Positions 1 through 48,280 of a DNA stretch of 64,000 nt are shown here, in pieces. Position numbers and translations under genes: made by a program. The notes beneath the pieces were generated by a model. That model ran no database searches and was not told where the DNA came from. It was given only the letters and a program-made list of their open reading frames with translations. Where the stretch lies: the NCBI GenBank assembly GCA_046563655.1, contig CM102286.1, positions 14,074,001 through 14,138,000 of the forward strand, read 5' to 3'. Every line of letters begins with the position of its first letter. Position 1 is the first letter of the stretch. Origin of the DNA: Yuukianura sp. NJ FZ-2021 (lineage: Eukaryota).

Positions 1-890
1 GCCGATAAATAGGGTATGAAATAATATTTAAATTTTTTTTAAATTTAACCTGCTCTAGTTGTGCTTGGAGCAACCAGTTGTGCTTGTTCTGAAAAATCGG
101 GGACATTCGGCTGCCTTAATCGATGATACGTGCGATGATGTAAACTGGAAATTCGTTTCCGTTTTGGTATTGGTCCATTTTCAATCAAACTCAAAACGTC
201 AGTGTCTTCGTACTTTCTTCTTCTCGGATTACTCATACTGTTCAATTAATTACTAAATTTTAACTCTAATTAACAAATTTGCTAATAATTGAATTTGTAT
301 TGAAGGAAACAGGACAAATACTATTCAATTTAAAAAAAAAATCTTTCTGAGAAATTCTGCAACACAATATTTTCTGGCCCAAATCCAATTCGACTCGGAA
401 TTCATCGGTTTTGTTTTCAACCTTGTACTACCCGGAATACTAAAAACCGGGTATCGCAAGTTATGCTGAAGGTTTTGTTCAATGTATTGAAATTTTTACT
501 TTTGTGTTAATTGACCATGAGCAATAACCACGAGCTGGTCAATTTAAAAGTAAAATGAGCCGCATGCTAATTCCAAAATTTCGATAATTGAGTAACAATA
601 ATTGTTACTCAGCAATTTTCAGCAATTATTACTGAAATTGTGAACTTGAACTTAATTCTTTCAAACTCTAAATATTGCTAAAGACGCAACATTCTGACAA
701 TTTGCACCTCAAAATTTGAAATTCCAAGTAAAATTGAAACTAAACTTAACCGGTGAGTTAACTGTTAGCAATTGGACACTTTGCAAAGAAGTTTTTTAAA
801 AATCTGCCTGTTCCAACGTAGAAGTCAACTCGACAATAATTGTGTTTTTTTTTAAACTAAATTTTGTCAACGCGCTGACGCAGCGTCAAC

Positions 891-2405
891 ATGGGTGACA
901 GTGACACTACAAAGCTTATTAAAAATTGTCAGAAGATTCCTTCAGTAGGTTTTTCAAAACCAACAAAGTTTTTGAAATAAAATATTTTTGAAATCGAAAT
1001 TTTTTGAAAAGAAAATTTTTTTTAGGAATCTGAGTCTGACTCCTCATCAGACACGTCGCCAGACGACACTTCAGTTCCCTTTCGTCCTCGGCGTACCGAT
1101 CGCATCATGTCCGTAGAAAACACGACTTTAACTGAAATCATAACAATTTATGAAAAATTGAAAAAAGGGCGGGAAAACCGTGTTCTAATGAAATCCAAAC
1201 TGGAATTTCCCGCTCACCGCAACAAATGTGACATGACCGGTACGGTTTTTGTAGACGACGGTACAACTGCAAGTGAAACGATTCCGATGGTACCGACTTT
1301 CAATGCCGGACCAGAAAAAAGTGTCATTTCGATTCTGGATTTTAACAAATTCAAAAATTTCCGGCACACCAAGTACTTGTACTACTCTCAAAAAGTTGGA
1401 CTTTTACAGTGTGACTTTATTGAAAACCTTGGACAAAGTTTTGCTGAATTGCTCAAAGGAAAAAATTATTGGCTCAACATTTACGATCCCGACGAAGAGG
1501 ATTTTTCTATTTTATTTAACAGTTATGGCGTTCATGATTTGACGATCAATGACATTCGAGAAGGCTACACTGAAGAAAAATTAGAAGTATTTGAACATTA
1601 TACTTTTGTATCTATGCGTCTAATGTCCGAAAACAAAAACAATAACGACACAGACAAAAGTGGCCAAAAAGATGACGATGACGTAGATTTTAATATCTTA
1701 TTGTTCAAACATTTTGTTATAACAATACACGAAAAACATTGGCCAAGTATCAACGATATTCTGGGCTTTTTGAATCTGATTACACATAATGCGCATGCGC
1801 CATTATCACCCGACTGGGTTTTCTTTTCAATTTTTATTGAAATGAATCAAGATGCAAAGTACATTATGAATTTAATTGAACCTAAAATTGATGAAATTAG
1901 ACTCGGTAACAAATCGGTTGAAGTCATGAAAAGGAATTTTGACCTCGAATTGGAAGTTTACGGTATTTCGAGATTTATTAAACCCAAAATGAAAATTTTG
2001 AGACAACTGAAACAAAAGTGTGAAAAACGGTGTAATCCTAGTGTACTGAGACTACTGGGTGAAATACTGGAGGATTTGGGAGAACAATTGTATGACCTTA
2101 AACAATTTAATGTCATTTTAGAGAGGTCACAAGACACTTTTTTGACTTTGATTGCTTCAGATCATTCCAGACAAGCTTGTGATGATAATAGAATTATGAA
2201 AAGAATTTCAGAACTTGCTTTGTTTTTTATTCCGTTTAACCTCATTGCACTTTTTATGGGGACGAATGTTGAAATTCCATTTCAAAATTCACATTATGAT
2301 TCGGAAATTTACTTTTTTGGGCTTATTTTGATCAGTACAGTGCTGGGGGCGATGTTATTCTATTTACGTCGATTTATATTTTCATATTCAAAAGATATTG
2401 CATAA
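891..2405 (+). CDS. CorA/Alr1-Mnr2-like Mg2+ transporter, copy 1 (exons 891-944, 1026-2405)
   Basis: WLNIYDP...HDLTINDIREGYTEEKLEVFEHYTF and FVITIH match the fungal-type CorA soluble domain. Two C-terminal hydrophobic helices carry FMGTNVEIPF at the GMN position. A short ATG exon at 891 splices in phase 0 (GT 945, AG 1025) into the long ORF. Confidence 0.85.
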
Positions 2406-2849
2406 CTTACTGTGAATTTAAGCAGTTGTGCAGTAGGTATTTCGTATTGAGTGGGTTTAATTAATTGTAATTATATAAAAGCTTATTACAATTATATGTA
2501 ATTCTAATTACATAGATTTTAATTAAAAGTAATTGTAATTACATCTGACGACTTACAAGTTACAACTTTGCAGGTAGTGTGCGAATGAATTAAAAACCTA
2601 AGAACAAAAATTTTAAGATTTTTTTTTTTGCAATTTTCTGTTTTCATTTGTTACGTGGTAAAATTTAAAATTTGTGTTAAATTTTAAGTTAAAAGTGCTA
2701 TAAAAACTTAAACATATGCCATCTTTAAGTTTTTATACGTTGTTTTATCCTTGTGTGATGATTCATGTGTTTTTTTTTTTTGTTTTTTGAAAATTAATTT
2801 TTCATGGTACAAATTTGGTTTTGGCGGGAAAATTTAAATTTTGGCAGCT

Positions 2850-4395
2850 TTAGTTGTTGAAGCTATGTGCATCCTCCATGTCATCATCCAAAATTTCGTT
2901 TAAAGACGTTTGATTCAACATGTTCGTATCCGACCGAATGAATTTAGGAGTTCGTACGGTGTAGAATCCGCAAGTACCGACGACTTGGAGCAGTTCCGTT
3001 TTGTATCCCGGTAGAACTACAAATGTCAACGTGTGAATAGTTTCTTCGGATCGGACCTCTACGGATTTTTTCGTCCAGGAACCAAAGTTGGCCATAAGTA
3101 ATTTTCCGAGTGATGCCGAATCGTATCCAAGTTTGTCATAAGCTTCTGTGTCGCCTTTGGCCGCCAAATCCGAACGTCCAAGTCCAACTTTCTTTTGATA
3201 AGTGCATGTCAGCGGTGTGACGCCTTCGGTATTGTCACATTCCTTGACAACGTCCCAAGTTTCTTCCGGTGTACAGTTTTTAGCGGGATTCGGCACGTCA
3301 CAACATACCATGTCAACATTGTTCAAGCCAGTGTCATCCCCTGAAAAATTTCCAAGGTCACGATAAGCATGGTTGGCAAAAATATGTGCCAAAAAAACCA
3401 AAATATTGACAAAAAATTTTCTCTTTTTTTAAATCGCCCATATATACACTAATTTACAGCGCTGCCAAAAATATTTATTGAAAACCAGCGAAATATTTAA
3501 ATAAATGCAATATTCATTGTAAACGCTTGAAATATTTACTAACTTAACATTAAGGATATCGGAAAATAAATCAATATTTAGCAACAAAAAGACCTAAAGT
3601 ATTTTTTTTTGTTAACATTACAGGAACGGAAACTATATATTTTTGGTAAGTCAGCTAATTTAAAATTAAGGGCATGGGCAAATAAATAAATATTTAGCAA
3701 TGAAAATCCCCCAAATGTTTTGTTATTTATGTTACGAGCATGGAGACTAAATATGTTTGACATCCCTGTCCGCATAAACTTCATGCAAAATTTAAAATTT
3801 GGCAGAAAAACTTACGCTTCCCGCGGTATGGTTCCACTTGCGTCCGGAATCCACAGACGGCTTGTCGTTCTAGACAGTGTTGCGCAGAAGTCCAAGTTCC
3901 CTCAGTCGTTCCGTAACCTTCGACACTCACTCGCTTCTCGGAACAAAACAAATTCAAATTGTTTGCTGCCGTGTCATCCCGAGTATTCTTTCCAAAGATC
4001 CAACTGAAGAAGTTTGCGCCCTTTGACCTCTCTGACCTCAACTGAAATCCAGTCACAAAAGTGTGTTCTGGACAGAACAATACGGTTCCCCAACTGCCAT
4101 ATCCTCCTTCTTCTGATATAATGACACTCGCATTGTAGTGGTTCACTGGTTTCCCAATGGGAGAACAATGGAGTCGGATTGCATTCAAGGCAGTGTTGTC
4201 CGTGTATCCGAAGATACCCGGTTTTCGGATCGGCTCCACTTTGAGTTGCATGCCGTTGACATACTGGCCAGGGGGGCAGTGGACCAGTTGACCCCAGTGA
4301 CCCCATGTTGTCACACGCGGAGAGTGGATGACATAGTTACTCCCTCCAACAGCCACCAACAGGGTCACAGCAATTGTCAAACAAGATAACGTCAT
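2850..4395 (-). CDS. Secreted VMO-I (beta-prism I) domain protein with C-terminal beta-rich extension (exons 4395-3816, 3340-2850)
   Basis: Signal peptide MTLSCLTIAVTLLVAVGG. Three VMO-I repeats: WGHWG..CPPG..DNTALNAIRLHC; YGSWG..CP..DDTAANNLNLFC; GTWT..C..DDTGLNNVDMVCC. A phase-1 GT-AG intron 3815-3341 joins the two ORFs in frame. Confidence 0.85.
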
Positions 4396-5326
4396 TTTGA
4401 TTACAAATTTTGAAAAACTAAAAAAAAATTTCAAAAAGTTGTTTTTGTGAACTAAAGTTAGACATGAACCGTGTTGTGTACCATTAAAAACTAAACTGCT
4501 GTAGTTATGTTTTGTGTTGCTAGAAAGTTGTTTAGTTTTCACACAGATTAGCTTACACAGAAGTTAAACTAAAGAAAGTGAGATAAAAAGTTCAAATTGA
4601 CCTTTGACCTCACTTTGAGCCATTTCGATAACGCAAGAACCTAACACTTCCTTCTTCTCAATGTCACTTTATCATTTCCATGTCTAACTACGTCTAAAAC
4701 TTTAAACAACATCTATTAAAAAGTACATTTGAACAGTTGAATTTATTGCGTCACATTTTAAACTAGTCACAATTTTTTCAGGGTGACTCAAATTCCAATT
4801 CTTTTCAAACGAATTAAAAACAAGGATCGAATATCACAAAAGTTTTGACTGAAAAAAATTCTTATGTCAAAAAACTGTTTCAATTTGTGGAGTTACGACT
4901 ATGAGTCATAAAAAATCTTCACTTCCAGCAGTTTCTTCTGCTGATTTAAAAAATTTTCTCATACATTTGAAAAAATGACTTTTAAAAGAACAGCAAGTTC
5001 TATGTAACTTACATGTCTGAACGAGCCTCTTAGAAATTTTTGAAAACATAATTTCAAAATTCTGTTTTAAATTTTGAAAAGATTTGAAGATTGGCATAAA
5101 CTTCTGCGTTTTAGTACTTACGTTAGCTTCTGTAAAATGTGTGAAGTTATGAATTTCAATTGGAAGCAATTTGTATGGAAAATGAAAGGATTTGAGAACT
5201 TTGCTTAATTGGGCCTAAATTTCACACCTCTAATTATGAAAAGTGGGAAATTCCAGATTTTAACTCACAGAGATCGACTGATTTTTCAAATCACTTTATT
5301 TCATCAGTGCGATTTTAGAAACCAAA

Positions 5327-7244
5327 ATGGCTGCTCGCCGCCGAGGAGTTTTGGAGCAGGTAAGAAAAATTTGGATTCTTGAATTTTTGAAAAATCGAAA
5401 AAATATCTGTAAACGTTCATTCAAAATATGGATTTTGTATTTTTTTTAATTTGTGTGATGATGACGTTTTCAAGCCCGTTCGGTTCAACTTGAGTGAACA
5501 TGACGATCACGGCGAGGAGGTCATTGACCTCAGACCAAGGTCAGCCGAACCCACGCGCCGACGCAGATTAATGTCCGTTGAAAACACAACTTTAACTGAA
5601 GTTATAACAATTTACGAAAAGTTGAAAAAAGGGCGGGACAATCGCGGTGCACATCACGTGCCATTTGACATGACTTCGCGCCGAGTCAGATTCAGCACTT
5701 CCGGTGCAAATGGACCAATCCCGGTCATCCCAATTTTTAACATTCCAGCCGAAAAACAAGGCATTTCACTTCTGGATTTCAATCGATACCAAAATTTCCA
5801 TCCTAGTAAATATTTGTACTTTTCTGAAAAAACGAATCTCCTTCAGTCGAAATATTTGAATACACTTTCTCCCGTATATTCGAACCTGCTTACAGACAAG
5901 AATTACTGGTAAGGGAAAACTAGTAAATTCGAAAATTTTGAAAAAAAAAACTTCGAAAATATTTTTGAAAATCTTTAGGCTAAATATTTTCGACCCTGAC
6001 GAAGACGACTACTCACTGCTTTTTCACAGTTTTGGAGTTCACGATTTAACAATTAACGACATCCGGGAAGGAAATACTGAAGAAAAATTAGAAGCTTTTG
6101 AGCATTACACTTTCCTATCTCTGCGTCTAATTCGCGAAAATATGAAAGAACAAAAACGAAATGAAGATGTGGATTTTAATATTCTGCTTTTCAAAGACTT
6201 TGTTATCACGATCCACGAAAAAAATTGGCCCAGTATCACCGACATTCTTGGATTTCTGAACCTCTTAACCGCAAATTCAAAAACGGCGCTCTCCCCTGAT
6301 TGGATTTTGTTTTCAATTTTTATTGAAATGAACCAAGATGCCAAGTACATCATGAGTTTCATCGAACCCGAAATTAATAAAATCCGAATCGGAAGTAAAT
6401 CGGTTGACATCATGCGCCGAAATTTCGAAATGGAGTTACAAGTTTACTCGATTTCAAGATTTATCAAACCCAAAACAAGAATTTTGCGTCAATTGGGTGT
6501 CAAATGTGCTAAAAGAATTAGTCCAAGTGTGGCAAAACTTTTGGGTGACATTTTGACAGAATTGAACGAACAAGCAAAGGATATTACACAATTTAAACAC
6601 ATTTTGGAACGATCACAAGACACATTTTTGGCTATTATTACTTCTGACCAAGCACGAGAGTCAAATGAGGTCAACATGGTTGTGAAGAGGATCAGTGAAA
6701 TTGCTTTGGTACTTTTGCCAATTCAAATTATAGGTAAACATTTTTCGAAATTTTGACAAAAAATTTCATGATTTTCGAAGATTTCAATTTGAGTTTGTTC
6801 GAACTGGAGGCGAAGCCCCAGCAAACTTTGCGCTGCAAACTTACTTTGTTTTTAAAAAGGAATATTTTTTTTTGGATTAGTTTTGAATTCTTTTTTTGTT
6901 TTATTTTTTCTTCATATAATTCAAATTATGGGTAAAGATTTATTGAAAATTTTATGACAAAAAAAAACTCATTTTTCTAAACACCGTAAGTTTGCTGGAG
7001 AGGCGAAGCTCCAGCAAAATTTGCGCAGCAAACTTGTTTTTACCTTATTTCTGTTTTAACTTTTGGATTTTTTAATTTTTAATTTTTTTTTTTGTGCATA
7101 GGTGGCTTTATGGGCACGAATGTTCAAATTCCATTTCAAAATTCGGTTTACCCGGACACTATTGTTTTTTGGATCATGTGTCTCCTCAGTACTTTGGTTG
7201 GGTTGACCGTATTTCTTTTTCGGAAATATATTCTGTCTTACTAA
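5327..7244 (+). CDS. CorA/Alr1-Mnr2-like Mg2+ transporter, copy 2 (exons 5327-5359, 5475-5908, 5979-6733, 7102-7244)
   Basis: Clear paralogue of 891-2405 (shared MSVENTTLTE.ITIYEKLKKGR, FIEMNQDAKYIM, ILERSQDTFL). All three GT-AG introns keep the frame. The last exon reads GGFMGTNVQIPFQ...RKYILSY*. Confidence 0.85.
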
Positions 7245-7338
7245 AAATAAAAATTATTCCATTAAAAACTTTGTGTTTAACCAAATTTTTTAGATCTGAC
7301 TGAGTAGTCAAAATGATGTCCTAGTTTCTAATTTTCCG

Positions 7339-8554
7339 CTACTTTACTTTTTTAACGTCAGTTTCAGTATCTGTGAACGTCGTTCCGTCGTCGTCATTGA
7401 CGCTTCTGTCATAAATTCCTGGATGGGCACGTGATATATGCCTCTTGAGGTTGTAGCACGACCGAGGAGTTATTCTCAGTATTGTCTGGACTCCTACTTC
7501 GTCACAGTGTTTACACAGCGCTGCATTCTTGTCGCCTTCGTCCACTAAGAAATGCTTCCAAATAGGATTGCAACTCCGGCCACCTCCTTCTGGATCGTAG
7601 ATATTCGTAAAGACTTTCTTTTCTAAACCAATAGTTTCTGCAGGAGAAAACGAAAGATTATGAGAAAGTTAAACCACAAATTAATAGTTAATCAAAGTTT
7701 TTGTGAGGCTAACTCGAAACGCCAGGTTCATCTTTGTTGTGATCTGAATCTCCAGGGTTGGACTCAACTTCAACTGAGTTCTCCTTTTCCTGTTTGATCC
7801 GTTTAGTATGTGGTGTCAATCGCTTCATGGGCTTAAGCTTAAACATCGGTTTGGTCTTCTTATCAACCAAAGTTTCTTTATCCTCGTGGCTACTGCCATC
7901 ATCTTCTTCTTGGTCGGTTCCAATTCCGTCGCCGACATTCACGGCTGGAAATACAGTTTAGACATGGTTATAGTCCAGCGAATAACTTTGTAAGTAGATT
8001 AGTACTAATGGTATGCTTTGAATTCATCAGAGATTGTTGCTCTCGTTACATGTTCGCATTCGCTTTGTTCTTTGCTGTTTGGCTCTATTTCGTCTGGCCT
8101 TGGAAGTGGAAGTCCGCTCTACTTTTAGGAGATCGTCGAATTCGAAATCCGGATCGCCTAATGCTTCCACGTCAGCACCGGCTTCAGCATTTCCAACATC
8201 AACTCCATCAGAAAATTGAAGTGTGAAGCCTTGAGAAGCCAAGTTGCCAATGTCCTTCCAATGAAACAACACGCTTTGATACAGTGTTCGTTCGCGATTC
8301 AGTAGCTCCTGCTGGACTTGAAATTGGTCTGAAAACAAAATCCAAGTTACTAATATCATTTAACTATTATTAGTATTAATTTGTATTGTAATATTACGTA
8401 ATTTATATCAAAATTCACCATTTCTATTATTGAGAATCTGTTCCACGATTGCCATCTTCATGTTCATTTCATCCTGGAATAATTTCAGTTGCTTCTCCAG
8501 CCGTTTGAATTCGTTCCCAATGTCGCCGACATCCAACTTCTCCGCACGAGTCAT
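7339..8554 (-). CDS. Coiled-coil + single BED zinc-finger protein (about 4 exons)
   Basis: N-terminal exon MTRAEKLDVGDIGNEFKRLEKQLKLFQDEMNMKMAIVEQILNNRN. Last exon NPIWKHF...ALCKHC...NLKRHISRAH fits the BED consensus. Internal exon boundaries are approximate. Confidence 0.7.
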
Positions 8555-9118
8555 CTATCAAAACGTAGAGTTAGAATAATCAATTGGTCAATTAAAAAAG
8601 TATTTCGTTAATTTTAATTATTTCGTTAGTCACTGTATTTACAACTCAACCATTCGTCAATTAGTATCGTTACCTTTAAGTCGTCAGATGAAAACGATAC
8701 GTACAGCTGATCTGGAAGTGAGGCTATTTAGATTGTTAATCGCAGCAAAGGTTGAGGATTAGTAAGGTAGTAGTTAATTTAATTGAAAACAGAGAAGAAA
8801 CAAAGTTTACTTGCCATTCAACGGTCGCACTAAAATCCCGTTCCCGCCCACATTTCCAACGCCCATTCTGAGTTTGGCTTTCAAAAAAAGTATTCGCTCT
8901 TCATTGCTTAATTTAGAATTTAATTATGAACGAATAATTAATTAATGATTAATATACACAAATTAAGTTTAACTGTCGCAATTTACACAAATACTACATT
9001 CCGAAAAGTTACAACGTTTCTGACTAGACTTTTTGAGTTATAAACCCAAATTGAATTAAAATCTAATCTGATAGAAGCGGGAATTGTCAAAAACGCATAA
9101 ACGTTTCGTTAAAACAAT

Positions 9119-11441
9119 TTAAATTGGAAACGGAAGAATCTGATCTGGTTCTGGATGTTGTTGCTGATCAATGTGCCTGTTCCGCTTATGTTCAAAGAGA
9201 CTGGATATGTACTTTGCATTGCTCTGAGGATGAATCTGTTCACATCAGGAAAGAAAAAAGTTAGGGGTAATGGCAGCACATATGATTTGAATTATTACTT
9301 GTATCGGGTTATCCAAAATCTGTTACCTTAAGATGTCTCGCGAAGTTGTGACTGCCACGCCCTCTAATTCCTTTGTTGTTTGGTTTTTTAGATGAACATT
9401 CTTTACAGCGCATGACCACGTCTGGAGTGCCACAAGTTTTCTTGCCAGTGAAGTCCACAAAGTCAAAGAATGGTTCGAGAAATTGCATCCATCCGGGCAG
9501 TTTCTCCTCGGCATCCCTTCGCTTCGTTTTTCTATTTGCATTTATAATAGATCTTGGAAGGTCTACCGTATCAGTGGTGTTTACATCCAACTCTGAGACC
9601 AAACGATCTTTGACATCATGCTGGTCGTCATCAGTTTCACGAGATTCCTTCAAAATGGAAATGGTTTTAGCAAGTGTTACCAATTGGAATTAGTTACTGT
9701 AAATGTTCTACTAGAAGCGCGCTAATAATTATTTTTCGAGTTTTGCTCCGCGCTACGATGTAGAAACAAACTTTCTGTCGGTTTTATTTCAAAACTAATT
9801 TAAATTGTGGTAAATCAATCTAACATAACAATCTTCCAGTCATCGTTTCCACTCTTTATTAATATCAGATTCTTCAATCGAACTCTCCAATTATGCAATA
9901 TCCTTCGAATTTTCACAATCTGACTGAACGATGACTTCTTTCATTTCGGACGACATAAGTCGTCGACGCCTCCCACTTAAACGCTTTTTGACAGATGATT
10001 CAACTTGAACTCCAGACTCTGATTTTGTCGCAGCAACTAAAATCGGTAGAAAAGTATAAGGACAGTTTCAGAACTTCTAACTTATTCGTCAAATCTTACC
10101 AATTTTGTCTTTTTGTTGGAGCCAACTAAATACTTGTTTACGGTGGACACCAAAGTGAGCTGCTGTTCCATCGACTGTATGATTAGATGCGTACTCGATT
10201 ACTTTTAACTTAAAGCAAAGGTCAAACGATCTCCTCGATTTTCCGGTTTCTAAGCAGCACTGGTTACGATTTGAGTAGGTGGGCAGTAGCGGAACCGGAA
10301 AAGGGCAAAGAGTAAGATTTTTGTTTTCAAAATTATTCGCGTTTATCTCTCATTTTGCCTAGCCGGAATGCGCTTTGATTAGGATGCCGCTGCTATTAGG
10401 AATCGCGTTTTAATAGAACATTTACGGTAAGTTCAATTACCTTGGTTGTTTGGTCTACTCCACCGGGTTCATCTCCCGGCTCATGGTCGTCAGGACTGTC
10501 GTCTTGCTGCGGAAAACTTATATCTGGAATGTGTTTTTTAAGATGGCGGTATAAATTCCAAGTTCCGCCGCGTCGAGTTTTCAAAATGTGCTGAGTTCCC
10601 TCGTCTTCACAAAGTTTACACATGGCAGACATTCCATTTTCCTCTCGAAGATAGTACTTCCAGATAGGATTATTACTTTTCTCGCCTTTTTTGACACTTC
10701 CCGTGGTATAAAAGTTCACATAAACTTGCTTTTCTAACCCTCTCGAATCTGGAAGATACAAATACAATACACCACTCATCATGAGACATCGAATTAAGCC
10801 AAATCAAAAAGTTAAAGAAATTACCGTAGTCACTGCATGAAATATCCTCTTGATCCTCATTTTCAGAAGTATCGAGATCTTCTTGTTCCTCATTCAATGG
10901 GTCCCCATCTTCAGGGTCCTGTTCAACTGAAAGTTTTCAATGATAAAACGTAAACCCTTCGCCTTCAACATAAAGAAATGGTGGAGTTTGGAGTATGAAT
11001 TTACTTCGTTGCCGTTTTGATTGTAGTCGTTTGGAACGTTCCCTTCTCGCCTTAGATGATGACGGTCGTTTCTTAGACACTCCCACGCCCACCAATGGAT
11101 TCACTTTTAGATCTTCACTGCCTGTTTGTGCAAAATGCAGCGATATTCCATTTGCAGCCATGTCTTCAATGTTTTTCCAATGAACCAACACTGTTTGGTA
11201 GAGGGAATGCTCTCGTTCAAGTAAATCCTTCTGGATCTGGAACTGTTCTACAAAAACAAGAAGCTTCGATAAAAATAAAAGCATAACACGTCAAAATTCA
11301 TTTTGTTTTCCAGTTACCATTTCTGTTGTTTAGAACTTGTTCAACAATGCTCATTTTCATGTTCACTTCTGCCCTAAATGTCTGAAGTGTCTTCTCCAAT
11401 TTCAGCATTTTCGCAGTCAATTCCTCGTCGGTTGAACACAT
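9119..11441 (-). CDS. Coiled-coil + two BED zinc-finger protein, paralogue of 7339-8554 (multi-exon)
   Basis: The first two exons align with the neighbour (NMKMSIVEQVLNNRN; QFQIQKDLLEREHSLYQTVLVHWK). BED1 is NPIWKYY..CKLC..NLYRHLKKH; BED2 is CKEC..NFARHLK spliced to IHPQ. No transposase catalytic domain seen. Confidence 0.7.
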
Positions 11442-18759: not shown

Positions 18760-19483
18760 ATTTCAGCAAATGCCGCTGGAGAAAAGAAGTTGAGTTCCTT
18801 CACAGACGTTTTGTTAACTTAGAATGTAAAATTTTGAAGAATCAAAGCTACTACCATCTTGATTTCATAGAGAGCAAACAGAGTTGTAGTCCTGCACCCC
18901 ACGTACTGACTGTACTGACCATAATACTCTCCGCCCCTTTTTCATTAAGCTCCGCCTGTTTCAAAAATCGGTTTGGATTGTACTCTTCCGGTTTTTGAAA
19001 AATTTCGAAAGCAAAGCCACTGAGCATGAGCATTGGAGAGCACATTGCAACGGCATCTGCGTCTCCAACATGGTAGTCTCCCAGAGTGACATCTTTGTGT
19101 TGCGGTTTGCGGCAAAGTGGGAAGATGTGCGGTGCTCTCCGAGCACTTTCCATCACACAAGCGTTCATCAGCGCTGAATTCAAAATTGCCCGTGTATCAT
19201 TTTGCCCCAAATGGTCCTCACAATCTTCTCGGAGTTTGGTTCAGTATTCGGAATAACATGAAGATCTGTCAGAGTATGCGCAAGACCCAATGAGGAATTT
19301 TCTGAGCTGATGTAAAGTAAAGTAATAAGCCACGCCTTCGTTTGTTAGCCCTTGACCTGTGACCTCGTCAACATGATCTGCATCAGTTCGGATGATAATC
19401 GAGTCCCGCTTATTCGGATCTTCCCGGTACTTTTCAATTACTGGTGGACAGTAGTTTAGTGTTGCGCGCCGCAATGGGAGCCA
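18760..19483 (-). pseudogene. 3' half of a cytochrome P450 paralogue (copy of about 27295-28040), decayed
   Basis: Long near-identical stretch to the intact P450 (GQNDTRAILNSALMNACVMESARRAPHIFPLCRK...). Both ends carry indels and stops, and the heme-ligand region is disrupted (WGAGLQLCLL). Confidence 0.9.
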
Positions 19484-22207: not shown

Positions 22208-25200
22208 CTAATGTTGAATGAGTGAAAAGAGCGTTTGGTCAGTTGGTGGCAAATGGCTAACTTTGGCTACCGCTTCATCCCGAACTCGAACTCCCCAGGC
22301 TTTGAACATCGGTGTCAAATTTTCTCCAGCCGCCAATGAAAATTGGACCAACCAAGTATCTACTTTGTCTTGTTCAGAACTTGGTTTTGGCTCCAAAGTT
22401 TGATAATTTTTGAAAACTTTTTTGTAAGTGTCCCATCCATACTTGGCTTTCAGTTGATAGTAAAATAGCAGCCCCAACCATGGGTCATCCCCCAATCTTC
22501 ATAGTTCGGCCCCTTCTTAGCACTCGCTTCAATCCTACTGCGCACGACACTCGGTTCAAATCTATCTGGGCGTGCCTGGGCAGGCGTCATTCCGATCAGT
22601 TCTTCATAGACATACAAAGCAAACATGTTGTTTGTAACTTCCGTGACAACTGAGTATGTCCAAGTACTGACTTGATGGTTGTGTCCAATTTCATGGTAGA
22701 AGCCCCACCCATCTTCACTTCTCAGTTTAGCAACTGACAGCGCAGTCGCAACAGATTTGTCTGTAAGAATCATGATTGGATAGCCAGAGTGCATGTAACC
22801 AGCCGAAATTTGAACGTCTGCGCAGAGCCGTTCTGGGTATGGTCGGTTTCTTGGAATTGCCGCCAAATCTGCTTGGGCATCCATCACTTGATCCCAATAC
22901 TCCATAAGTTCAATTGGATTTTCCAATTCAGCCAATCGCGAGCCAGGGAGAGTCAAAATTAGTTTTTTCGTCTCAAGTTCCCCCCAGGGGCAAAGAGTTC
23001 CGTAATTTCTAATTTGGCGCCACTCATGTAACGTTGTTTTGCCCAACACAAAATATGGGGCCAAAATGGCTCCTGAAATGGTGAGGTCAACGACCTCTAG
23101 ATCTTTAGCGGTATCGGTTTGATGCAAGTAGATCAACCCACCAAAGGCATTGCGTATTTGAAGTTCCGTGCCACCGGTACGCAAATCCTTCCGAACAAGA
23201 ATTACCGGACACCGTTGCCACTCCGATTTTTTGGAAATGTCGTCCCGGTGAGTGCCAATTTGAATTGCAAATTTTTTGTGAGGAGCGTGGGAAAATTTAA
23301 CGGTAATTTCTTCGCCTGGTGGAGCATACAAACCGGTAGAGTACCACTGATCAGTTGTCGTTTCAATTCGAACCGAGTGACCTTGAACTCTGACTGCTCC
23401 TGATGAGGGGAGTCCAGGGAAGTAGCAGGCTGCTGGATGACAGTGACATGCGTTGTCCTTACTTCCTGGAGCGTCCTCTGCATTGTAAACATAGTTAACC
23501 ATCATTTTGATTTTGAATTTTTCCAAAGTATCAGTAATTGCATGGTGCTCCGAAGGAATGCTCTCTTTAAGCCCCGCCTCTTCCAATTCAAATTTCAACT
23601 TGGCGGGAAAGCTTCCTGGGCCGGTATTGGCCAACGAGTCGGCAGCCAGACTAAGTACTGCTGAGATTTGAGCGAGCCGGTCTTCTGGAAGTTGGATTTT
23701 GTTGGTCAGGTGCCATAGTAACAATTCCCAGCATGTGCTGGCGTTCATGTCTCTCAAGTCTTCGGAACGGGCAGTGTAGCCAACTTTGTCGGATTCAATC
23801 GGCTTCGGTTCGTAGCCTCCGTTCCAAGCAACTCCAGTTTCTTGCAATAACTAAAAAAAGAACACGAAAAAATTACATTTAAATTTAAATGTTGGCGGTA
23901 GGGGTGTATATCCGTCACGGATTTTTAGAAATCCGGATTTTGACGGATTTTTATTAAAAAATATGAATTTAAATCCGGATTTCAGAATACATAGGATTTT
24001 ACATAAGTGATTTTTTTTAGCTTCTCAAAATTATAATCAACGTGTTTTAAGCTCCAAGTACCAAAAAAAGTTGATAACGAATCTCAGGAGTTTCTTTTTT
24101 GTTTAACTTTTAATTGATTTAAACTAAATTTTCCGGTTTTCGTTATCAATTTTCAAATTGCCTATACCCGAGAATGGAGCAAAAAATCCGTCAAATCCGG
24201 ATTCAATTTTTTTGAAATCCGAATATAGGAGAATCCGAATCTGGCAAAAATCCGGAACACAAATCCGGTTTTATATCCGTAACATCTATCCGGATTTATA
24301 CTCGGGACAAAAATCCGGATTTACCCCTAGTTTGCGAGTGAAAACTGAAAATTAGGAGAAAAGAGAATTTTTAAAATTTTACCAAATTGCCGCAGAAATC
24401 TGTCTTCAAATTCGTTTTTTGTGCCCAAGCAGTTGCAGAAATGACGAGACCGCCGCCATTGATGATAAACTGTCGCAAGAGCTTGATGTGCGCAGAATCC
24501 GAAAGTGCATTGACATCCGTCACAACCAAAGTGTCAATGTCACTTAACTTGTCAGTGACTTGTCCAGAATTTTGAAAATATTCAAAATGGAAGTTTCCCT
24601 CGTTTTGACTCAGCCAATCCTTGATCCAATATTTTTCCAAAATTCCAACTCGTAGTTTTTCCCCGCCATTTCTCTTCCCGCCTGTCCAGTGTACACAGTT
24701 CGTCAACAATCGGGAAGTAGTTGGCAGTGTTGGATTGGTGAAGCAAGTATGACCGAAGGCCGTGATTCGTCCATTTCCGAACCGGGTAGCTCCGCCCACC
24801 GCTTGTCTCTCCGTGCCATGTTGTCCCGGGAGAATTACAAAAGCATCAGGGCCGTAAACACTCATCATGCCCACAGTGCCGGACTTTTCAACACCACCTT
24901 CTAGGCCTTTGAGTAACTCTTTCATGTCGTCGTCATGGTACCGGACGGCCCTGTTTTCCGAAATGGCCACGACTAACGGATGGCCCAAGGGCAGATATCT
25001 TTTGGCCAGAAAGTAACTGGCCTTAAGTTGGGCCTCCAGGGCTGAGTCGATCACGTGACCTCCGTTGTTGACCAATAGATTCCAAGCTTTCCCGCCATTA
25101 ATGTTTTCAAGCATATCGTGATCGGGCATCCACTTGTCGGAGTTGATCGGCGTCACTCCGTAGTCTCCAGTCCAGCCGAATCCAGCGTCATGGCAAATCT

Positions 25201-25825
25201 GTGTTACAAAAATTCTAAAAATGTCAAAGAATAAAATTTTTTTTCTTCAAAAACTTACCAAATTCGGTCCAAATGTCAAAATATTTTCCTTGTTCGGCCA
25301 TCCCGTTCCAGCAACGACCAAGCCACCACCCCTCTTAATAAAGTACTTCAAAGCATCTGCCACCCCTTGCGTCACTAGATGTACGTCGCCAACAATGACT
25401 GCGTCGAATCCATTTAAAGTTTTTCCGTCCTGAAGCGACGTGGCGTCAATTTCGCTAATTTTGAAAACCGTATCCGGTGCCCAGTTTTTCAAAGTTTGGT
25501 GGAATCCAACAATTCCAACCGATAAAGCGTTTGGAGCCTTTCCACTTCCAGCACTCGTCCAAAGAACGCAGTTGCGCAGAAGTTGATTCTGAAGACCCGA
25601 TTTAGGACGCGTATAAGTGTCATGTCCAAATCCAACGACACGCCCTTCACCAAAGTACGCTGCAGCCCCAATCGCTTGACGTGACCCGTCTTGAGCAAAT
25701 TTTCCCGCCAAAATTGGAAATGCCCGGGGGCTAAATACGGTCATAGGCCCAGGGGCTCCATCGAGGTCAACTCCAGCAGGTAAACTCGCAAACAATGTGT
25801 CAAAAGCGGCCTGTTGCAGAGACAT
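22208..25825 (-). CDS. Peptidase M60 / TCAF(FAM115)-like zinc metallopeptidase (exons 25825-25259, 25198-24383, 23850-22208) with a 1-nt frameshift near 22490
   Basis: WYSTGLYAPPGE, FGGLIY, PWGELE, ER..ADVQISAGYMHSGYPIM, WGFYHEIGHNHQ and EVTNN motifs. Two repeated N-terminal modules (RQAIGAAAYFGEGRVVGFGH / RQAVGGATRFGNGRITAFGH). Introns are phase 0. Confidence 0.85.
23901..24327. mobile_element. MITE-like element in intron 2 of the M60 gene
   Basis: TA-flanked imperfect terminal inverted repeats (GGGGTGTATATCCG ... CGGATTTACCCC), with many ATCCG/CGGAT subterminal motifs in opposite orientation at the two ends. A related single end sits at about 26010-26075. Confidence 0.6.
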
Positions 25826-26582
25826 TTTTGTAGAGGTCAAAAGGTCACGGTTTTACAAAACCAAAAGAAAAAACTGTACAATGTTATAAAAGTTGGGAAT
25901 TTTATAAGTCTGCAGCCAGGAAATGGTTAGGTTTATGATTAAGGTTTGATTATGGAATTAATTGATGTTAATTGGTTGGTGGTTCAATTAAAGTCGGTTT
26001 GGTTACCACTAGGGGTCGAAATTCGGATTTTGACTTCGGATTCAAATCCGAATTTTTGACGAATCCGAATAATTCGTACCACCAAGGACGTTTGACCAAT
26101 TGGATTCTCTGCGGTTTTTGCACTCAAAATGTTGTGGCATAAACTAGAATTAACTAACATTGATTAATGAATTTTGGATCATCAGACCACCTTGTTTTTT
26201 TTCTTCAAAAAATGAGCTTGAACATTTATAAATACTTCAGAAAACTTGAATGCTGCATCACAAAGCTATAATTGTCCATCTCCTGAAACGTTTAACTTTG
26301 GTTAAAAGTTGAGCCTTATTTTCCAAACATTTTTTTTTCATGTTCTAAATTTAGTCCGATGTCATGCAGTGTTTTACCCCTTTGGGTACAATATGCTACT
26401 CAATCCTTGAAATCTGTACTTTTGAACCATCGTTTACAAAACTTTCAAAAGATTACCCAAAAAAGTATTTTTCGTTGTTTCAATTCGGTACTTGAGTTAA
26501 ATTGTTTACATTCGAAGTAAGCAGTCACTTTTGTTTCGAGAAAAAAGGAATTGTCAAGATTTGAACAAAGGTGCAGCTTTAA

Positions 26583-31471: not shown

Positions 31472-31920
31472 AATTTCGGGTTCAAAGTTAGTTAAGCATC
31501 GTGCGCCGCAAAGGGGCTTGCCAAGGGTAGGTGATTGTGGTTTTCATCCGGTTCATTTCATCCGGATGAGTTCAAAACCTAAGAAACAGCGAGCGCTTGG
31601 CATTAAAAGTGAGCATTTCTTTGCGCAAGTCAATTTGGAGTGGAGATTTTTCACAAGCCGTTTTGAGTCGCTCTACCATTCGTTTCGCTGCAGATCGATT
31701 TTTGGAACAAATTCATCAAATTTGACGGCAATTGACTGGCGTACTAAGACGGTTGTGAGTGTAACGGGATTTGGATTGGGGTAGGCAAATCCATCGTCAA
31801 AGAAAAGATTCGACAGGATTTCGTTGAGTGACAAAGTTTCGTCGGTGGATTTAAAAAATTCTGGACTCAAATTAGTCACATACGACCACAATTACTTGTC
31901 GAAATACTTTGATTTTAAAC
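31472..31920 (-). pseudogene. 5'-half fragment of the cytochrome P450 (copy of about 27992-28510), frameshifted
   Basis: NLSPEFFKSTDETLSLNEILSNLFFDDGFAYPNPNPVTLTT is nearly identical to the intact gene. There are several indels and an internal deletion of roughly 80 bp. Confidence 0.9.
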
Positions 31921-33574
31921 AATTTGATTTGACTTTGATTTCTATATTTGGACTACGACTTTTCTCGGCAAGTCAGAGGTCACCGGGTCTTTCGGCACTT
32001 TTCACTACTTTCGTAAACCCGGGTTCTAACGGGTTTATTAAGAGTGAGTTGAAACCGCAAGAGCTTTTAGATTTTCAAAAGCAAAAATGACATTTTCAAT
32101 TAACATAAATCCTCTTTGCACAATTTGAAACAGACTTCCACATTGCCAAATACGCCACAATTTTTTCGATTTTCAACTACACCGACGTGCTATGGTTCTA
32201 GGTTTTGAAAACTCAGCCAGAACTGTCCCAGAAGAGTCCTTTTTAGGGTAAGTAAGTATTCCCAAAATTTTGGGTATGTAGAAAAGAGGGTTGAAAAATG
32301 TGGGAAAATGAGGGAACTCATACTTTCTAAAGTCCAAAATAGACTTCGTTTGTCTGTAAACGTGAAATCTAACGTTTCTAAAGCTAAGTTTTAAATTCAA
32401 TAGACAATATTTATCATTAGTTTATTTTTTTCTACTTCAAGAAGACTTCAGTTATTTAGCAGAGAAATGAAGGTAAAATTGTATTTTTAGCACGTGCGAC
32501 TCGGATTGTTTGATTTTTTTCCATGATACCTTATGTACGCTTGACCATGAAAAAATATTTTTTTATTGCTACGATCTCAAAAACTAAATTAAAAAAAAAT
32601 GTTTAAACTTTTTTTCTGTGCTCCATTTGGATGAAAATCTAAATTACTTAGATCTGCAATCAGATTTGGCGGTTTTTGTCAAACAACCACAACAAAAAAA
32701 CAAACGAAAATCCGCGTCACATGATGAAAGTAAAATTTTTCCAGTAAATTAAGTGAGCCGCTCGAGAACTGAATAACTTATTTAGTTTTCAAAATTCCCT
32801 CAAAATTTTATTTAGAAAAATGCCTTAACGCTTGCGAGTACCCTGAAAACGGGTAGTTTCTGCTAACCTAAAATATTTGATCTTGTGTTTTTATAGATAG
32901 AATTTCAATATTTTAGTTCTATGAAAAAAATGTCAATTTGGTTCAGGGGGTGGCAAAAATGCCTTAGCGACCAAAACCGATTCTCGAGTTGTTTACAATT
33001 TCACTCGCAATTACGTCACTCCGAGTTAAAATACAGGTTCATCCAAGTTTTTAAGCTATTTTTATGTTTGCGGCGAAAGTTTTGAGACTAAAAATCATGA
33101 AAATGTTGAACAGCACTGTAAATGAGTGAACTCGAAGTCAAAGAAATCCCATAGCAACTCAGTTTTGAAAAAACAATTTTAAGCGACCGTACCTATAAGT
33201 ATCCTATTTACCATGAATTTGGTTCAACTTTTTTTCGTACTGAATACTGAATTTTCAGTTTTCAAATTAAATACTTGTAACGTTAATTTTATCCTAATCG
33301 AGCACACTTTAATCGTTTCCTTAGCAACCGGTGGGTGGACTAGAACAACGAAACTTAGAACGAACGAGACTTGTCGAGGCTGGAAGAAGAATGGATGAAA
33401 TCATGATCAAGTTATATGGAGAAGTGTCTCGACTCCTGGTCACTTGAAATTTCCGAAAATTTTGTGCCAAAAAACTGTTGATCCGTTTTTTTTTCCTGGA
33501 AGATCCTGCAACATTTAAAAGAAGATTAGAACCAAATTAACCTTTAAACTCATCCTAAGAATTTCAGCCAATTT

Positions 33575-34799: not shown

Positions 34800-37190
34800 A
34801 AACAACCTTGTTTAACTCGAAATTTTGTTTCAATGAACTAAAACAATTTTCAAAAAATCTGAGCAATTAAAAATATAGTTAAAGAGAAAATAATTGATCC
34901 AAATCTTTTCCTGGTGGAAGGGTTCCCAGGATTGAGGCGGAGTTCCCTCTCTGAATTGCAATGCTAATATTTTGAAGCAGAAAAGTAGTGGCTCTGTGTT
35001 CTCCAGTGGGTTCTGCAATTCGTTGACCAATTGACTTGATGAGTTGTAGACCCTCAGCTCCAAAGACGCCCGTAGTTTCTACTGCAACGATTGAAACGAT
35101 GAATTGATGATGAAGGTCGTCGTAGAGTCTGTGTTTCTGAGTTTCAGCCAAGGAGGCAGGGTAACCACTGGTACAAGAAGAGTTGGTAATGTAGGAGTTC
35201 GCAAACGTGTCTCGACATGTTACATCCCAAACCAAACATCGTCCAGTTTTCCATGGGATCAAAGTGATTCCGTCTGGTCGTTTCCCATCGGAGCGAGAAC
35301 ATCCTGGTGGTTCCTTCAAGCAGGGAATACCGGCTGAATGGAGAGCTCGAACAATAAGGTCATTGATTGAATCATGTCTCGAGTGTCTTCCTGCGCTTTT
35401 GATACAACTCAGTCCGTGAAGACCGTTACCATCGACAGGGGCGCCACAGCGACATCGGTGAGGTAAACAAATTTCGCAACCAAGCCGTAGAGAACAGGAA
35501 ATCCTAAAACAATCGTTAGACAAAAGTGTACCAAGTTGAGAAGACGGCAACACCTTCAGCCAATCACCGGAGTGAGGGGCAACAGCAGCAATTAGTCGTG
35601 CTTTGTCAGTCAAAGTAGTGGAATTCTCGAGTAATGTCTTGTAAGTTTCGGTTGACACCAATTTCTCCCAATCTTTTTGTATCTTGCAATTAACTGGAAA
35701 CTGGAAGCCATTATTGGACCATTGCAAAGTTGCTGAATCAGTAGATGCATCGAATGGAGAGAGGTGAAGTGGCAGGAATGTGTTGATCAGGTCAGCACAA
35801 CTGTAGATTGAAGCCAAAAACGAGAAAGTAGCACAATCTGTAGCATGCCGGATTCCAAGGCCACCTTCGTCCACAGGTAGGGAAGTTTGAGTCCATGCAG
35901 AGTCTGTTAAGTTGATGTTCAGAATTTTTTCGATGACTTCCCGAAGAGCTGCATCATAAGCTTTCAACAGATCTTCTTCCAGAAAAGATGGTGCGCAGCG
36001 CAGGAAATATGACAGTCTTGGAGTCGATATTGAGGCTCTTAGTAAGAAGAATGCCACGTGAGAGGGTAGGGCTAAGAGCTTAGACGAAAGTTTTTCAAAA
36101 TCATCTGTCTTGACTTTCAAAATACGTCGACCAGACGCCTTGTATAGTGGGGCCCCAAGAAGTTCAGCATCTGATTCATCACATATGTGGATTTCTGGAG
36201 CGAAGGAAAGAAAAGAGTCCGCAATGACTTGAGATTCCGTTGGATCAGCGCCTAAGATGATGATCTCGCACTTTTCCATGTTGATCTGAAGTCCAAAAGA
36301 AGCTGCATTGTTGACGAGCTGCTTGAGATGATTGAGGATTACTTCAGGAGTATCTGCAATGGTTCCATCATCAAGATACCAAACATTGAGTTCTGAGTTG
36401 ATTGAAGTGGCAAGAGGGTGAATTGTGAGAGCAAAGAGGGCTGGACCAAGTGCATCACCCTGTTGAACACCGAGACTTGACTTGATTATGGATGATCCGT
36501 AGAATAAATTGGACTCTGCAGAATAGGCTTGATAGATGTAGTTGTAGAACTCTGGAAGGACCAGCTTTGCAGAATGTAGCATGTGATCTCTTCTGATGAG
36601 ATTGAAAGCATTCTTGAAGTCAATTTTCAGCATGACCTTGCTGGCTGAGTGTAAGGAATTGACATAGATTCTTGCGGCGTGGGCTGTAGCTTCTGCTCCA
36701 TTTTTGACTCCAACACCGTTTTGTACTGGGCTCAAGTATGGAACAATGTTTTTCATGGATCTTGATAGTACAAGCTTTGATGTCAGACGTCGCCAAGTTA
36801 ACCCAATTGCGATAGGACGAATTCTCCCATTCTTTTTCTGAAGAGCAATCAATGAGGCGCCGTAGAAAATTGGACGGACGAGATCGGGAATGGCGTTGTT
36901 GATGATAAGATTTGAGAGATTTGTAATGGAAGAAAGCAGTTTCTGACCAGAATCTCCAGTGACCTTTGAAGTAAGTTCTTTCAAAACTTGGGGACGTAGG
37001 CAGTCGAGACCACCAGCTGAACCATTCGGAAAGGAAGAGATTGATTTCAGTACTTCATGTTCGTCGAAAATAACTTCAATTGGTTGGGGAGGATCTGGAA
37101 GACTGATTGGAGTTGGATGAGGAGGATGAAGTTTGTGAAGGGCGTCTAATGTCGATGAATCTTGATAGGCAATTGAATCGTCTGAGATGT
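34800..37190 (-). mobile_element. 5'-truncated non-LTR retrotransposon, CRE-like (RT + CCHC + restriction-like endonuclease); ORF 37185-34879
   Basis: Intronless ORF with RPIAIG, KIDFKNAFN, GVQQGDALGP and WYLDDG (RT), C.C...HGLSC...RH (zinc knuckle) and KRPDG...LVWDVT (PD-(D/E)xK endonuclease). The frame stays open upstream of the TTG call (SAGGLDCLRPQ) but has no ATG before a stop at about 37203. Confidence 0.9.
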
Positions 37191-37292
37191 TAATTTCATT
37201 TTACCTAAACAAATATACCACAAATGGTATATTTTTCATATATACCACAAGTGGTATATTTCTTTGAAGATTTAGTAAAAAAATTTAAAAAA

Positions 37293-40137: not shown

Positions 40138-44839
<4,702 letters not shown>

Positions 44840-47022: not shown

Positions 47023-47971
47023 AACTAGTTCTAGTTTTCTCTAATAATTTTTTTTACACTACAGTTTAGTACTCAACAGGTCGAAATTCATCTAAAAATT
47101 ATTGTTTGTTTTTGAAAATTTAGTCTCTTGTGTTATCCGTTTCTAATTGTTTTTTTAATTCGGCCTCTGATGGCTTACGAAACCTTTGAGTTTTTATTGA
47201 TTTTCTGAAAATATTTCTGTTTATAAGAGCTTCTGCGGTTGCTCTAAACAGTTATGAATTTGACTTGTGAATACTAAAGTAGAGCTGAACTTTTCTCCAT
47301 TTTTTTTTTCGAATTTGAGGTTAAAAGTAAAGAAATGTTTCACATTTTTTGAAAGTGTGACGTTATTCTATGGTTTTTGACCTTCGAACTTTTTCGAAAG
47401 ATAACCTGTCATGTGATGATTTTTTTTCGCAAAGGCAGGAAATTGATAAATTTTCGTTTTCGGGATCCCACTTTGTTTCTTTCTCCGCACAGAAAGTAAC
47501 TTGAACTTTCTCCCGTTCTTTTTTTCTTTGCTTCTGAGTAAAGCTCGGCACTTTGTGTGTTGGAGGAACGGGATCGGAGAAAAAATGCCGAACTGTGCTT
47601 TTCAGCTGGTCTCCTCTCGTGTCTCGTCCTCTCGTCTGAATGTTAGACGTTGACCTTTGGACCTCCAGTCTTTTCCTGATTAAATTATTATCCAGCTCCA
47701 TTCGGAAATAAATACGACATATCCGTGTTTCGGCCTCACTTCGTCATTGTCACTGTAGCCAGATCAGTGAAACCATTTCACGTAAGAAATCTAAAACAAA
47801 TCTATACCTAATTAATTAGCACGTTTTGAAGCATAAACTTGACCTAATTTTTGATCTTTTGGAATGTCAACTGCTTAGGTCAAAGGTGAAGGTTTCTCAG
47901 CTACAGGAGGATTTGGCCAGTAAGCTGTCCAAGGGCAGAAGTTGGAAATCGGGGAGGGATCAGATGCGAAC

Positions 47972-48280
47972 ATGGTGTTAGGACCTACACTTCGGAAGTT
48001 CTTACCCTATATCAACTTTGTAGTGGCCACAGCAGCCCTTAGCTTTCAAGTCTGCGTCCTGTACCCTTGGCACAAACAACTGGACGAGGACTTTGGAATA
48101 CTGCGAGACGAGCAGAATGAGAAACTGGAGCAGTATCATCGTCTGAAGTTGAAACGACTGGAAGAGATTGAATCTAACATAAGATCACTTGCTAAACAAC
48201 AAGTCATGCTGGAAATGAATCAACTCACGGCTCTTGGAAAGCCTCTACCTGCTCGTAGCCTAACTTACGATAGTACTTAA
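47972..48280 (+). CDS. Small single-TM + coiled-coil protein (NFVVATAALSFQV.VLYPWH family), copy 1
   Basis: The ATG is conserved with copy 2. A hydrophobic helix is followed by LYPWHKQLDEDF and a heptad tail. Differences from copy 2 largely preserve the protein. Confidence 0.75.
   Translation: MVLGPTLRKFLPYINFVVATAALSFQVCVLYPWHKQLDEDFGILRDEQNEKLEQYHRLKLKRLEEIESNIRSLAKQQVMLEMNQLTALGKPLPARSLTYDST

Follow-up and report, generated by a model that had tools for sequence, protein, structure and literature searches.

We analyzed a stretch of 64,000 nucleotides (hereafter the window) from Yuukianura sp. NJ FZ-2021 (assembly GCA_046563655.1, contig CM102286.1, positions 14,074,001 to 14,138,000 of the forward strand). 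It carries a tandem pair of CorA-type channel genes that probably descend from a gene of the microsporidian branch, and both products read GTN instead of GMN at the filter motif. The explanation that we favor, with a probability of roughly two in three, is that springtails took up the ancestral gene from a microsporidian lineage, that GTN was gained a single time, and that the pair forms a pentameric Mg2+ channel on which the threonine would have a small effect. According to a review, metazoa have only Mrs2, as the preliminary description of this DNA had also assumed, and x in the GxN motif is Met, Val, or Ile (PMC9276622). Springtails, having gained such a gene by transfer, would apparently depart from this rule. 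The donor is unusual as well: transfers from hosts to Microsporidia have been described, and the reverse was not found in the literature searched. The main interest lies in this probable microsporidian-branch origin of an animal non-mitochondrial CorA; taken alone, the GTN triplet, which also recurs among prokaryotic proteins, is a modest result.

The two genes lie head to tail on the plus strand (table 1) and encode proteins of 477 and 454 residues, identical at 262 of 477 aligned columns (55%). Their four introns are all GT..AG, and both genes are free of internal stops. The short first exons are predicted only, on the basis of the splice consensus and of similar sites in L002, a metagenomic orthologous locus. 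That of gene 1 would encode an acidic, Ser-rich N-terminus apparently unlike a presequence, and a simple count relying on the predicted first exons finds eight Asp or Glu among residues 1-40 of both proteins. The motif FMGTNV.IPFQ closes the first transmembrane segment (TM1) in both proteins, which read ...LIALFMGTNVEIPFQ around G430-T431-N432 and ...IIGGFMGTNVQIPFQ around G412-T413-N414, respectively; the Thr codon is ACG at 2262 and at 7116. That this shared and retained change is no error, as first proposed from the sequence, is confirmed. The contig of run X1 spanning 4046-7400 has 0 differing letters, and separate metagenomic orthologues encode Thr too, as ACG in L002 and in a pseudogene of L004 and as ACA in L005. 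Run X1 is possibly the source sample of the window and hence not independent of it.

Both proteins match the Pfam CorA profile PF01544 (E = 5e-32 for gene 1 and 1e-21 for gene 2; 111.8 and 77.9 bits vs. a curated cut-off of 27). The AlphaFold model, computed for gene 1 only, from the internal Met at 1107, has a mean confidence (pLDDT) of 75 and the CorA layout, with a 75-residue helix forming the stalk and TM1 (311-385) and a TM2 helix (401-431). Thermotoga maritima CorA (TmCorA) ranked first among its Foldseek matches (E = 1e-12; template modeling score 0.50 on the query and 0.63 on the target), and the GTN triplet aligns with G312-M313-N314 of this protein, G and N being in register. Profile, fold, and G-x-N loop thus all agree with the CorA/2-TM-GxN (MIT) superfamily, except that x, which is Met in its signature (or Val/Ile in distant members), is Thr in both genes. 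A profile of 23 sequences searched against the PDB finds CorA, CmaX, and ZntB chains, with an affinity far stronger to TmCorA (E = 5e-23) than to CmaX (2.5e-5) or ZntB (0.049), and a ZntB or CmaX identity was therefore rejected. An Mrs2 identity was rejected too: no Mrs2 chain appeared among the 11 PDB sequences of the sequence search, the 27 of the profile search (E<=10), or the Foldseek rows listed; the trees held no Mrs2 row. An Atlas search also returned CorA, its first cluster being mostly microsporidian. Judged by these sequence comparisons, the pair represents animal CorA channels distinct from Mrs2 and of Alr1/Mnr2 type, in agreement with the preliminary description.

Among 1.84 billion representatives searched, 22 proteins matched at E<=1e-30, and the named close relatives belong exclusively to Folsomia candida or to Microsporidia. 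The final set of homologues comprised 159 rows, after removal of 10 rows with less than 60% coverage and of 18 duplicates or fragments, and addition of spliced locus models. According to tree position, they were divided into 20 springtail-like rows (1 named), 21 microsporidian-like rows (7 named), and 118 other rows, of which six were looked up and four, each of them fungal, are named. The median identity of gene 1 is 58% to the springtail-like rows, 39% (29-43) to the microsporidian-like rows, and 22% (18-28) to the others. In the IQ-TREE C20 phylogeny of 28 rows, the springtail-like clade (98/95) is sister to Microsporidia (94/86) within a joint clade supported at 100/100. With six prokaryotic CorAs as root, this joint clade (100/100; microsporidia 97/89) nests within the other eukaryotic rows, beside Paraphysoderma, and its stem measures 1.58 changes per site. 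The approximately unbiased (AU) test rejects a grouping of springtails with fungi (P = 2.6e-43; three of the five fungal rows are named), and with it membership in the true-fungal Alr1/Mnr2 branch. Of the "fungus or fungal relative" first suggested as donor, the relative thus stands, as Microsporidia, and the true fungus does not.

The best reading of these trees is an old transfer from a stem microsporidian to springtails. As the springtail clade is sister to the sampled Microsporidia, the donor would be a stem or unsampled early lineage of these long-branch organisms. The direction is deduced from two observations: fungi and Microsporidia carry the family as a rule, and the searches returned it from no other named animal. 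On the sequence evidence, the transfer predates this species and is common to F. candida, whose two homologues lie on scaffolds of 2.4 and 7.1 Mb; their label MNR2 ("manganese resistance protein") is an automatic database annotation only. After uptake by an ancestral springtail, the gene would have gained introns and then duplicated in tandem. The loci display features of a domesticated transfer: their introns are of host type, they are linked to host genes and under purifying selection, and they occur in several species. The phase 1 intron that precedes the filter loop is common to gene 2, L004, L005, L011, and L012, five of the ten intron-bearing models, and further positions are common to L002 and L013 and to gene 2, L004, and L005; these models come from an in-house spliced aligner, and some sites may be off. 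The tandem order is kept in L002, where the beginning of a gene-2 copy lies downstream of a gene-1 orthologue, and in L004, where a decayed gene 1 precedes an intact gene 2 and a carboxylesterase-like gene adjoins. The decayed copy (L004:29-784) has 72-81% DNA identity to L002 and shows frameshifts, stops, and a large deletion. In gene 1 of the window, 18 of the 22 listed variants are synonymous.

At the middle filter position, the springtail-like rows have 15 Met, 4 Thr, and 1 gap, the microsporidian-like rows Met in 21 of 21, and the 118 others 113 Met, 2 Ala, 1 Val, 1 Ser, and 1 gap. GTN is thus absent from the sampled rows of the putative donor clade, which on this point supports the preliminary description, and it occurs in a minority of the springtail-like rows. 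The four proteins with Thr group with L004 in a clade supported at 100/100, with the topology (gene 1, L002), (gene 2, (L004, L005)). Gene 2 of L004, a close orthologue of gene 2 of the window, reads GMN, and the adjoining pseudogene retains the Thr codon. A clade of the four GTN proteins without L004 (P = 4e-4) and a pairing of gene 2 with L005 (P = 0.008) are both rejected by the AU test, so that the GMN of L004 sits inside the GTN clade. A recent duplication within this species was also rejected, the two window genes not forming one clade (P = 1e-6). By its position in the tree, GTN is a derived state, which most likely arose by a one-base Met to Thr change, once, in a sub-lineage of springtails before the tandem duplication, was kept by purifying selection, and reverted once, in L004; this scenario requires two steps, independent gains three. 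Between orthologues, pS is saturated at 0.81-0.87 vs. 0.12-0.19 for pN. Of 40 fourfold sites, the four GTN genes agree at only 4, yet they all retain the Thr, with either codon; this residue is thus under constraint. C-to-U editing of ACG to AUG was rejected, since L005 uses ACA. Synonymous identity between the window copies is mildly above expectation (132 of 248 vs. 108.6; z = 3.3), with 10 of 14 near the motif, but the orthologous pair gene 2/L005 also gives z = 2.3. Some gene conversion between the window copies is therefore possible, and their two Thr codons were not counted as independent.

A strict GTN pattern, run over 185,579 prokaryotic species genomes, gave 35 matches. By profile, 24 of these are CorAs, otherwise canonical and distributed in many phyla. 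This number is a lower bound, as one complete genome holds a second GTN CorA missed by the pattern. GTN is rare but not unique. These YGTNF..MPEL proteins (L015-L049) share the triplet with the window pair but belong to an unrelated branch, used as outgroup, which indicates convergence; a characterized prokaryotic GTN CorA was not found in the literature searched. The complete bacterial genome with two CorA genes (G023; L057 and L073, both GTN) also has three MgtE genes. Other eukaryotic variants of the filter are a small GAN/GSN clade and one GVN protein (P0155, P0159, P0171, P0100). Taken from the sequences, GTN is thus a real, derived, and constrained change, but one that recurs in nature and whose effect is putative.

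In CorA structures, Gly carbonyls and Asn side chains hold a partly hydrated Mg2+, and the Met reinforces the hydrophobic core of the loop (PMC3629940). The Gly and Asn contact residues are intact in both genes, and the shifted metal selectivity that the preliminary description had tentatively raised is for this reason only a possibility. Thr replaces a loop-packing side chain that does not touch the ion; its effect would accordingly fall more on the packing, stability, or conductance of the loop region than on the choice of ion. Both genes keep Pro303 and Asp89 (TmCorA numbering) and have Glu or Asp at the Asp253 position, Asp89 and Asp253 being the M1 regulatory pair of TmCorA (PMC12933068). 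Met291 is kept in gene 1 and replaced by Val in gene 2. Gene 1 carries Leu427 at the Gly309 position and Asn423 at the Thr305 position, a trait absent from the preliminary description; L002 likewise has Leu and Asn at these positions. The Gly309 position is Gly in 20 of the 21 microsporidian-like and 106 of the 118 other rows (otherwise mostly Ser/Ala), and the Leu at this pore-lining position of gene 1 may matter more than GTN. All 20 springtail-like rows have Glu at the Ile296 position, a residue that none of the microsporidian-like rows has there and that is outside the five commonest residues listed for these and the other rows. By analogy with CorA structures, we propose that the proteins assemble as pentamers in the plasma membrane or an endomembrane. 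A hydrated divalent cation, most likely Mg2+, would be caught at the rings of Asn side chains and Gly carbonyls and passed through the TM1 pore, and closing would probably occur through cytosolic Mg2+ at the retained Asp89/Asp253-type site. We thus infer a Mg2+-carrying, Mg2+-regulated pentameric channel located outside mitochondria.

Several points weigh against this explanation. In TmCorA, alanine at 312-314 or 309 leaves no measurable current (PMC12933068), and according to a review single changes of the motif abolish Mg transport (PMC4613352); the GTN and Leu309 changes may therefore cost function rather than be harmless. In the four GTN genes, 182 of 355 columns are invariant, and retention of the Thr speaks for constraint, not for a special importance. 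Concerning origin, the springtail clade is sister to and not inside the sampled Microsporidia in IQ-TREE (FastTree nests it within the crown, at 0.86), which leaves the donor unsampled and the direction inferred. The named rows are few, 12 of the 14 loci of the metagenome scan come from one assembly, long branches are in play, and the groups compared by AU tests were defined with a first tree already in view. The set includes no row identified as Rozella, Mitosporidium, or a metchnikovellid. Finally, a named Orchesella homologue was not found although the searched collection includes Orchesella proteins, and the gene may thus be patchy within springtails or younger than the springtail root.

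A different view of function, with the same origin, is unlikely in our estimate. The pair would be specialized, either because GTN together with Leu309/Asn305 of gene 1 shifts selectivity (e.g., to Zn, Mn, Co, or Cd) or because gene 1 is a poorly conducting subunit that acts only in heteropentamers with gene 2. The Leu of gene 1 and L002 occupies a vestibule position that is usually Gly and at which the alanine substitution abolished the current of TmCorA (PMC12933068), and Thr is outside the residues given for x by the review cited above (PMC9276622). However, Leu309 occurs together with GMN in L008. The two genes remain adjacent across a saturated divergence, and in L004 decay of gene 1 accompanies a GMN gene 2. 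This is a single event, and gene 2 of L004 is maybe under relaxed selection (branch of 0.15 vs. 0.067 in L005). In line with a specialized role, 18 of the 23 checked prokaryotic genomes with a GTN CorA have MgtE and the remaining 5 gave an additional CorA match, but 9 of 14 control genomes also have MgtE, which makes this co-occurrence weak. Where the motif of the second CorA copy could be read, it is GMN in G001, G004, G018, and G020, GTN in G023, and GQN in G005, and L075 and L077-L081 gave no pattern match. Against this view, GMN CorAs and ZntB alike moved Mg, Co, Ni, and Zn in liposomes (PMC6972854). Given the Leu309/Asn305 residues of gene 1 and the case of L004, gene 1 as a modulating subunit of a heteropentamer is a possibility. 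Mixed channels have precedents in the yeast Alr1/Alr2 and Mrs2/Lpe10 heteromers. The strongest form of this idea appears to us more doubtful still. In it, the channel of an extinct or unsampled lineage of microsporidian parasites, once domesticated and duplicated, would have turned into an obligate two-subunit channel in one sub-lineage of springtails. Its filter would read GTN, its vestibule would be narrowed by Leu, and its preferred ion would have shifted from Mg2+, for instance in favor of handling soil heavy metals; loss of gene 1 would have returned gene 2 to GMN.

The direction or route of the transfer could also differ, from an early hexapod host to Microsporidia or from a third unsampled, fast-evolving eukaryote to both. 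The two sister clades are each monophyletic, which does not fix the direction, and host genes have been found in Microsporidia (PMC4313915; PMC3337132). We nevertheless consider such a route improbable. The family is the standard fungal-type CorA and is present across named microsporidian genera including Nematocida, and it was not found in any other named animal in the protein searches made. The long stem is also what is expected of a microsporidian gene. Contamination by a microsporidian, which the intracellular arthropod parasites among the closest named relatives might suggest, or a sequencing or assembly artefact, is very unlikely. The four GT-AG introns have positions common across loci, a VMO1 gene lies between the copies, and the X1 contigs over 800-3490 and 4046-7400 have depths of 50 and 41, like the flanks. 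The flanks of the microsporidian-like loci L009 and L010 are 66-74% coding, whereas the 471-1199 bases flanking each of four intronless springtail-like loci contain no coding sequence, and the F. candida homologues reside on the megabase-size scaffolds. Vertical inheritance of an Alr1/Mnr2 gene that dates back to early opisthokonts and that the other animals have lost, or divergence of a duplicated Mrs2, is equally hard to sustain: no non-animal holozoan was identified among the rows and attraction between the two long-branched groups is conceivable, but springtails outside all other eukaryotic rows are rejected (AU test, prokaryotic root, C20 mixture; P = 8e-6), identity is higher to microsporidia than to the others, no Mrs2 chain was matched, and the N-termini are acidic.

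Under the preferred reading of a microsporidian-derived Mg2+ channel, the closest known counterpart is F. candida MNR2 (XP_035715209.1, P0022; paralogue P0307), which belongs to the springtail-like clade (P0022 in the trees) and shares the Glu at the Ile296 position. Unlike the window pair, both F. candida proteins keep GMN, and they are ~46% identical to gene 1. The clade therefore offers a natural series on the middle GxN residue, with GTN in the window, L002, and L005, a GMN revertant in L004, and the ancestral GMN in F. candida. The CorA-like transporters of Astathelohania, Hamiltosporidium, Vairimorpha, Spraguea, Vavraia, and Nematocida form the sister clade. They have in common with the pair an N-terminal helix of EIITIY.K.KKGR type, the DFNILLF.DF and ERSQD blocks, and a Gln at the Thr305 position (present in gene 2), but all 21 are GMN, and on the two microsporidian contigs examined genes are densely packed and the matching region lacks introns. 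With fungal Alr1/Alr2/Mnr2-type CorAs, the pair shares the eukaryotic non-mitochondrial branch and a G.NV.VP rather than an MPEL loop, and it probably works like Alr1/Mnr2; identity is, however, 18-29%, and a sister relation is rejected. This comparison relies on four named fungal CorAs, yeast proteins not being identified among the rows. TmCorA (PDB 3JCF, 8TMB) has the same fold and the same residues at the Asp89, Asp253-type, Pro303, Gly312, and Asn314 positions. It differs by a 16-17% identity, by Met313 to Thr in both proteins, by Gly309Leu and Thr305Asn in gene 1, and by Met291Val and Thr305Gln in gene 2.

Old transfers into springtails are well known, with 809 transferred genes reported in F. 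candida (PMC5490193). A springtail alternative oxidase derived from an oomycete similarly represents an old transfer from a eukaryote with patchy retention (bioRxiv 10.64898/2026.06.01.729305); donor and function differ, and physiological data are available for the oxidase whereas the CorA pair is known from sequence. Our search of the open literature, which covered neither subscription papers nor parts of the supplements, yielded no paper about the springtail CorA family, CorAs with GTN, or Microsporidia as gene donors to animals. The main text of the F. candida genome paper mentions neither CorA, magnesium, nor microsporidia, and the supplements examined contain nothing relevant; the remaining supplement lists could name the gene. 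In the part of O. cincta supplement file 2 that was searched, no CorA transporter row was found (PMC4987106). Table S7 of the same paper lists, among its rows, two MgtA-like P-type ATPases of Orchesella cincta with best matches in Rhizophagus. Together with the failure to find an Orchesella CorA of the springtail-like clade, these ATPases raise the possibility of repeated gains of Mg transporters by springtails.

Table 1. Position of the CorA exons and filter motifs and of neighboring features in the window
Feature	Position	Strand	Description
Gene 1 exon 1 (predicted)	891..944	+	ATG; GT donor at 945; reading frame continues into exon 2
Gene 1 exon 2	1026..2405	+	CorA cytosolic domain, stalk helix, TM1, GTN loop, TM2, stop
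Gene 1 G-T-N filter motif	2259..2267	+	G430 T431 N432; codons GGG ACG AAT
Gene 2 exon 1 (predicted)	5327..5359	+	comparable short first exon 3' of the gene-1 orthologue in L002
Gene 2 exon 2	5475..5908	+	next intron phase 2, common to L004 and L005
Gene 2 exon 3	5979..6733	+	cytosolic domain, stalk, most of TM1; next intron phase 1
Gene 2 exon 4	7102..7244	+	TM1 end, GTN loop, TM2, stop
Gene 2 G-T-N filter motif	7113..7121	+	G412 T413 N414; codons GGC ACG AAT
VMO1 gene, two exons	~4395-3816 and ~3340-2850	-	Pfam VOMI, E = 2e-39
VMO1 intron repeat	~3460-3770		high-copy repeat
BED-like units	~7300-8600 and ~10400-11300	-	short open reading frames at 8027-8359 and 10937-11284
Cytochrome P450, partial copy	18851-19240	-
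M60/enhancin-like peptidase	22450-25852	-	long exons
Cytochrome P450	27257-28735	-	intronless; Pfam E = 1.5e-44
Cytochrome P450, partial copy	~31785-32090
Non-LTR reverse transcriptase	34879-37200	-
ISWI	40422-44791	+
Small open reading frames	47924-48280, 49807-50238	+	near-identical
Kinesin	54262-58416	+

The window contains intron-rich animal genes. For the ISWI gene, the highest identity over high-scoring segment pairs (HSPs) is to Folsomia candida (68%), followed by two Orchesella species; this ranking covers the best 40 by score of 120 ISWI proteins fetched, three of which outscored Folsomia in summed bits through repeated or extra HSPs. We accordingly take the host to be a springtail. 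The reverse transcriptase and the kinesin are likewise ordinary host context. The VMO1 gene located between the CorA copies is absent from this place in L002 and L004. It has a C-terminal extension of ~150 residues that gave no Pfam or Atlas match, and the repeat in its intron reaches a summed X1 contig depth of >3000 vs. ~50 in the flanks. The P450 has what we take to be a microbial or CYP51-like look and is presumably a candidate for a further transfer. The M60/enhancin-like peptidase is possibly of bacterial derivation; two long open reading frames precede it, one with weak ThuA/GH42M matches. Downstream of the CorA pair, two related units each contain an exon that resembles a BED zinc finger by eye and a similar short open reading frame. 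The two small near-identical open reading frames encode one hydrophobic segment and a coiled-coil-like tail, a combination in which we presume a resemblance to a small fungal-type protein.

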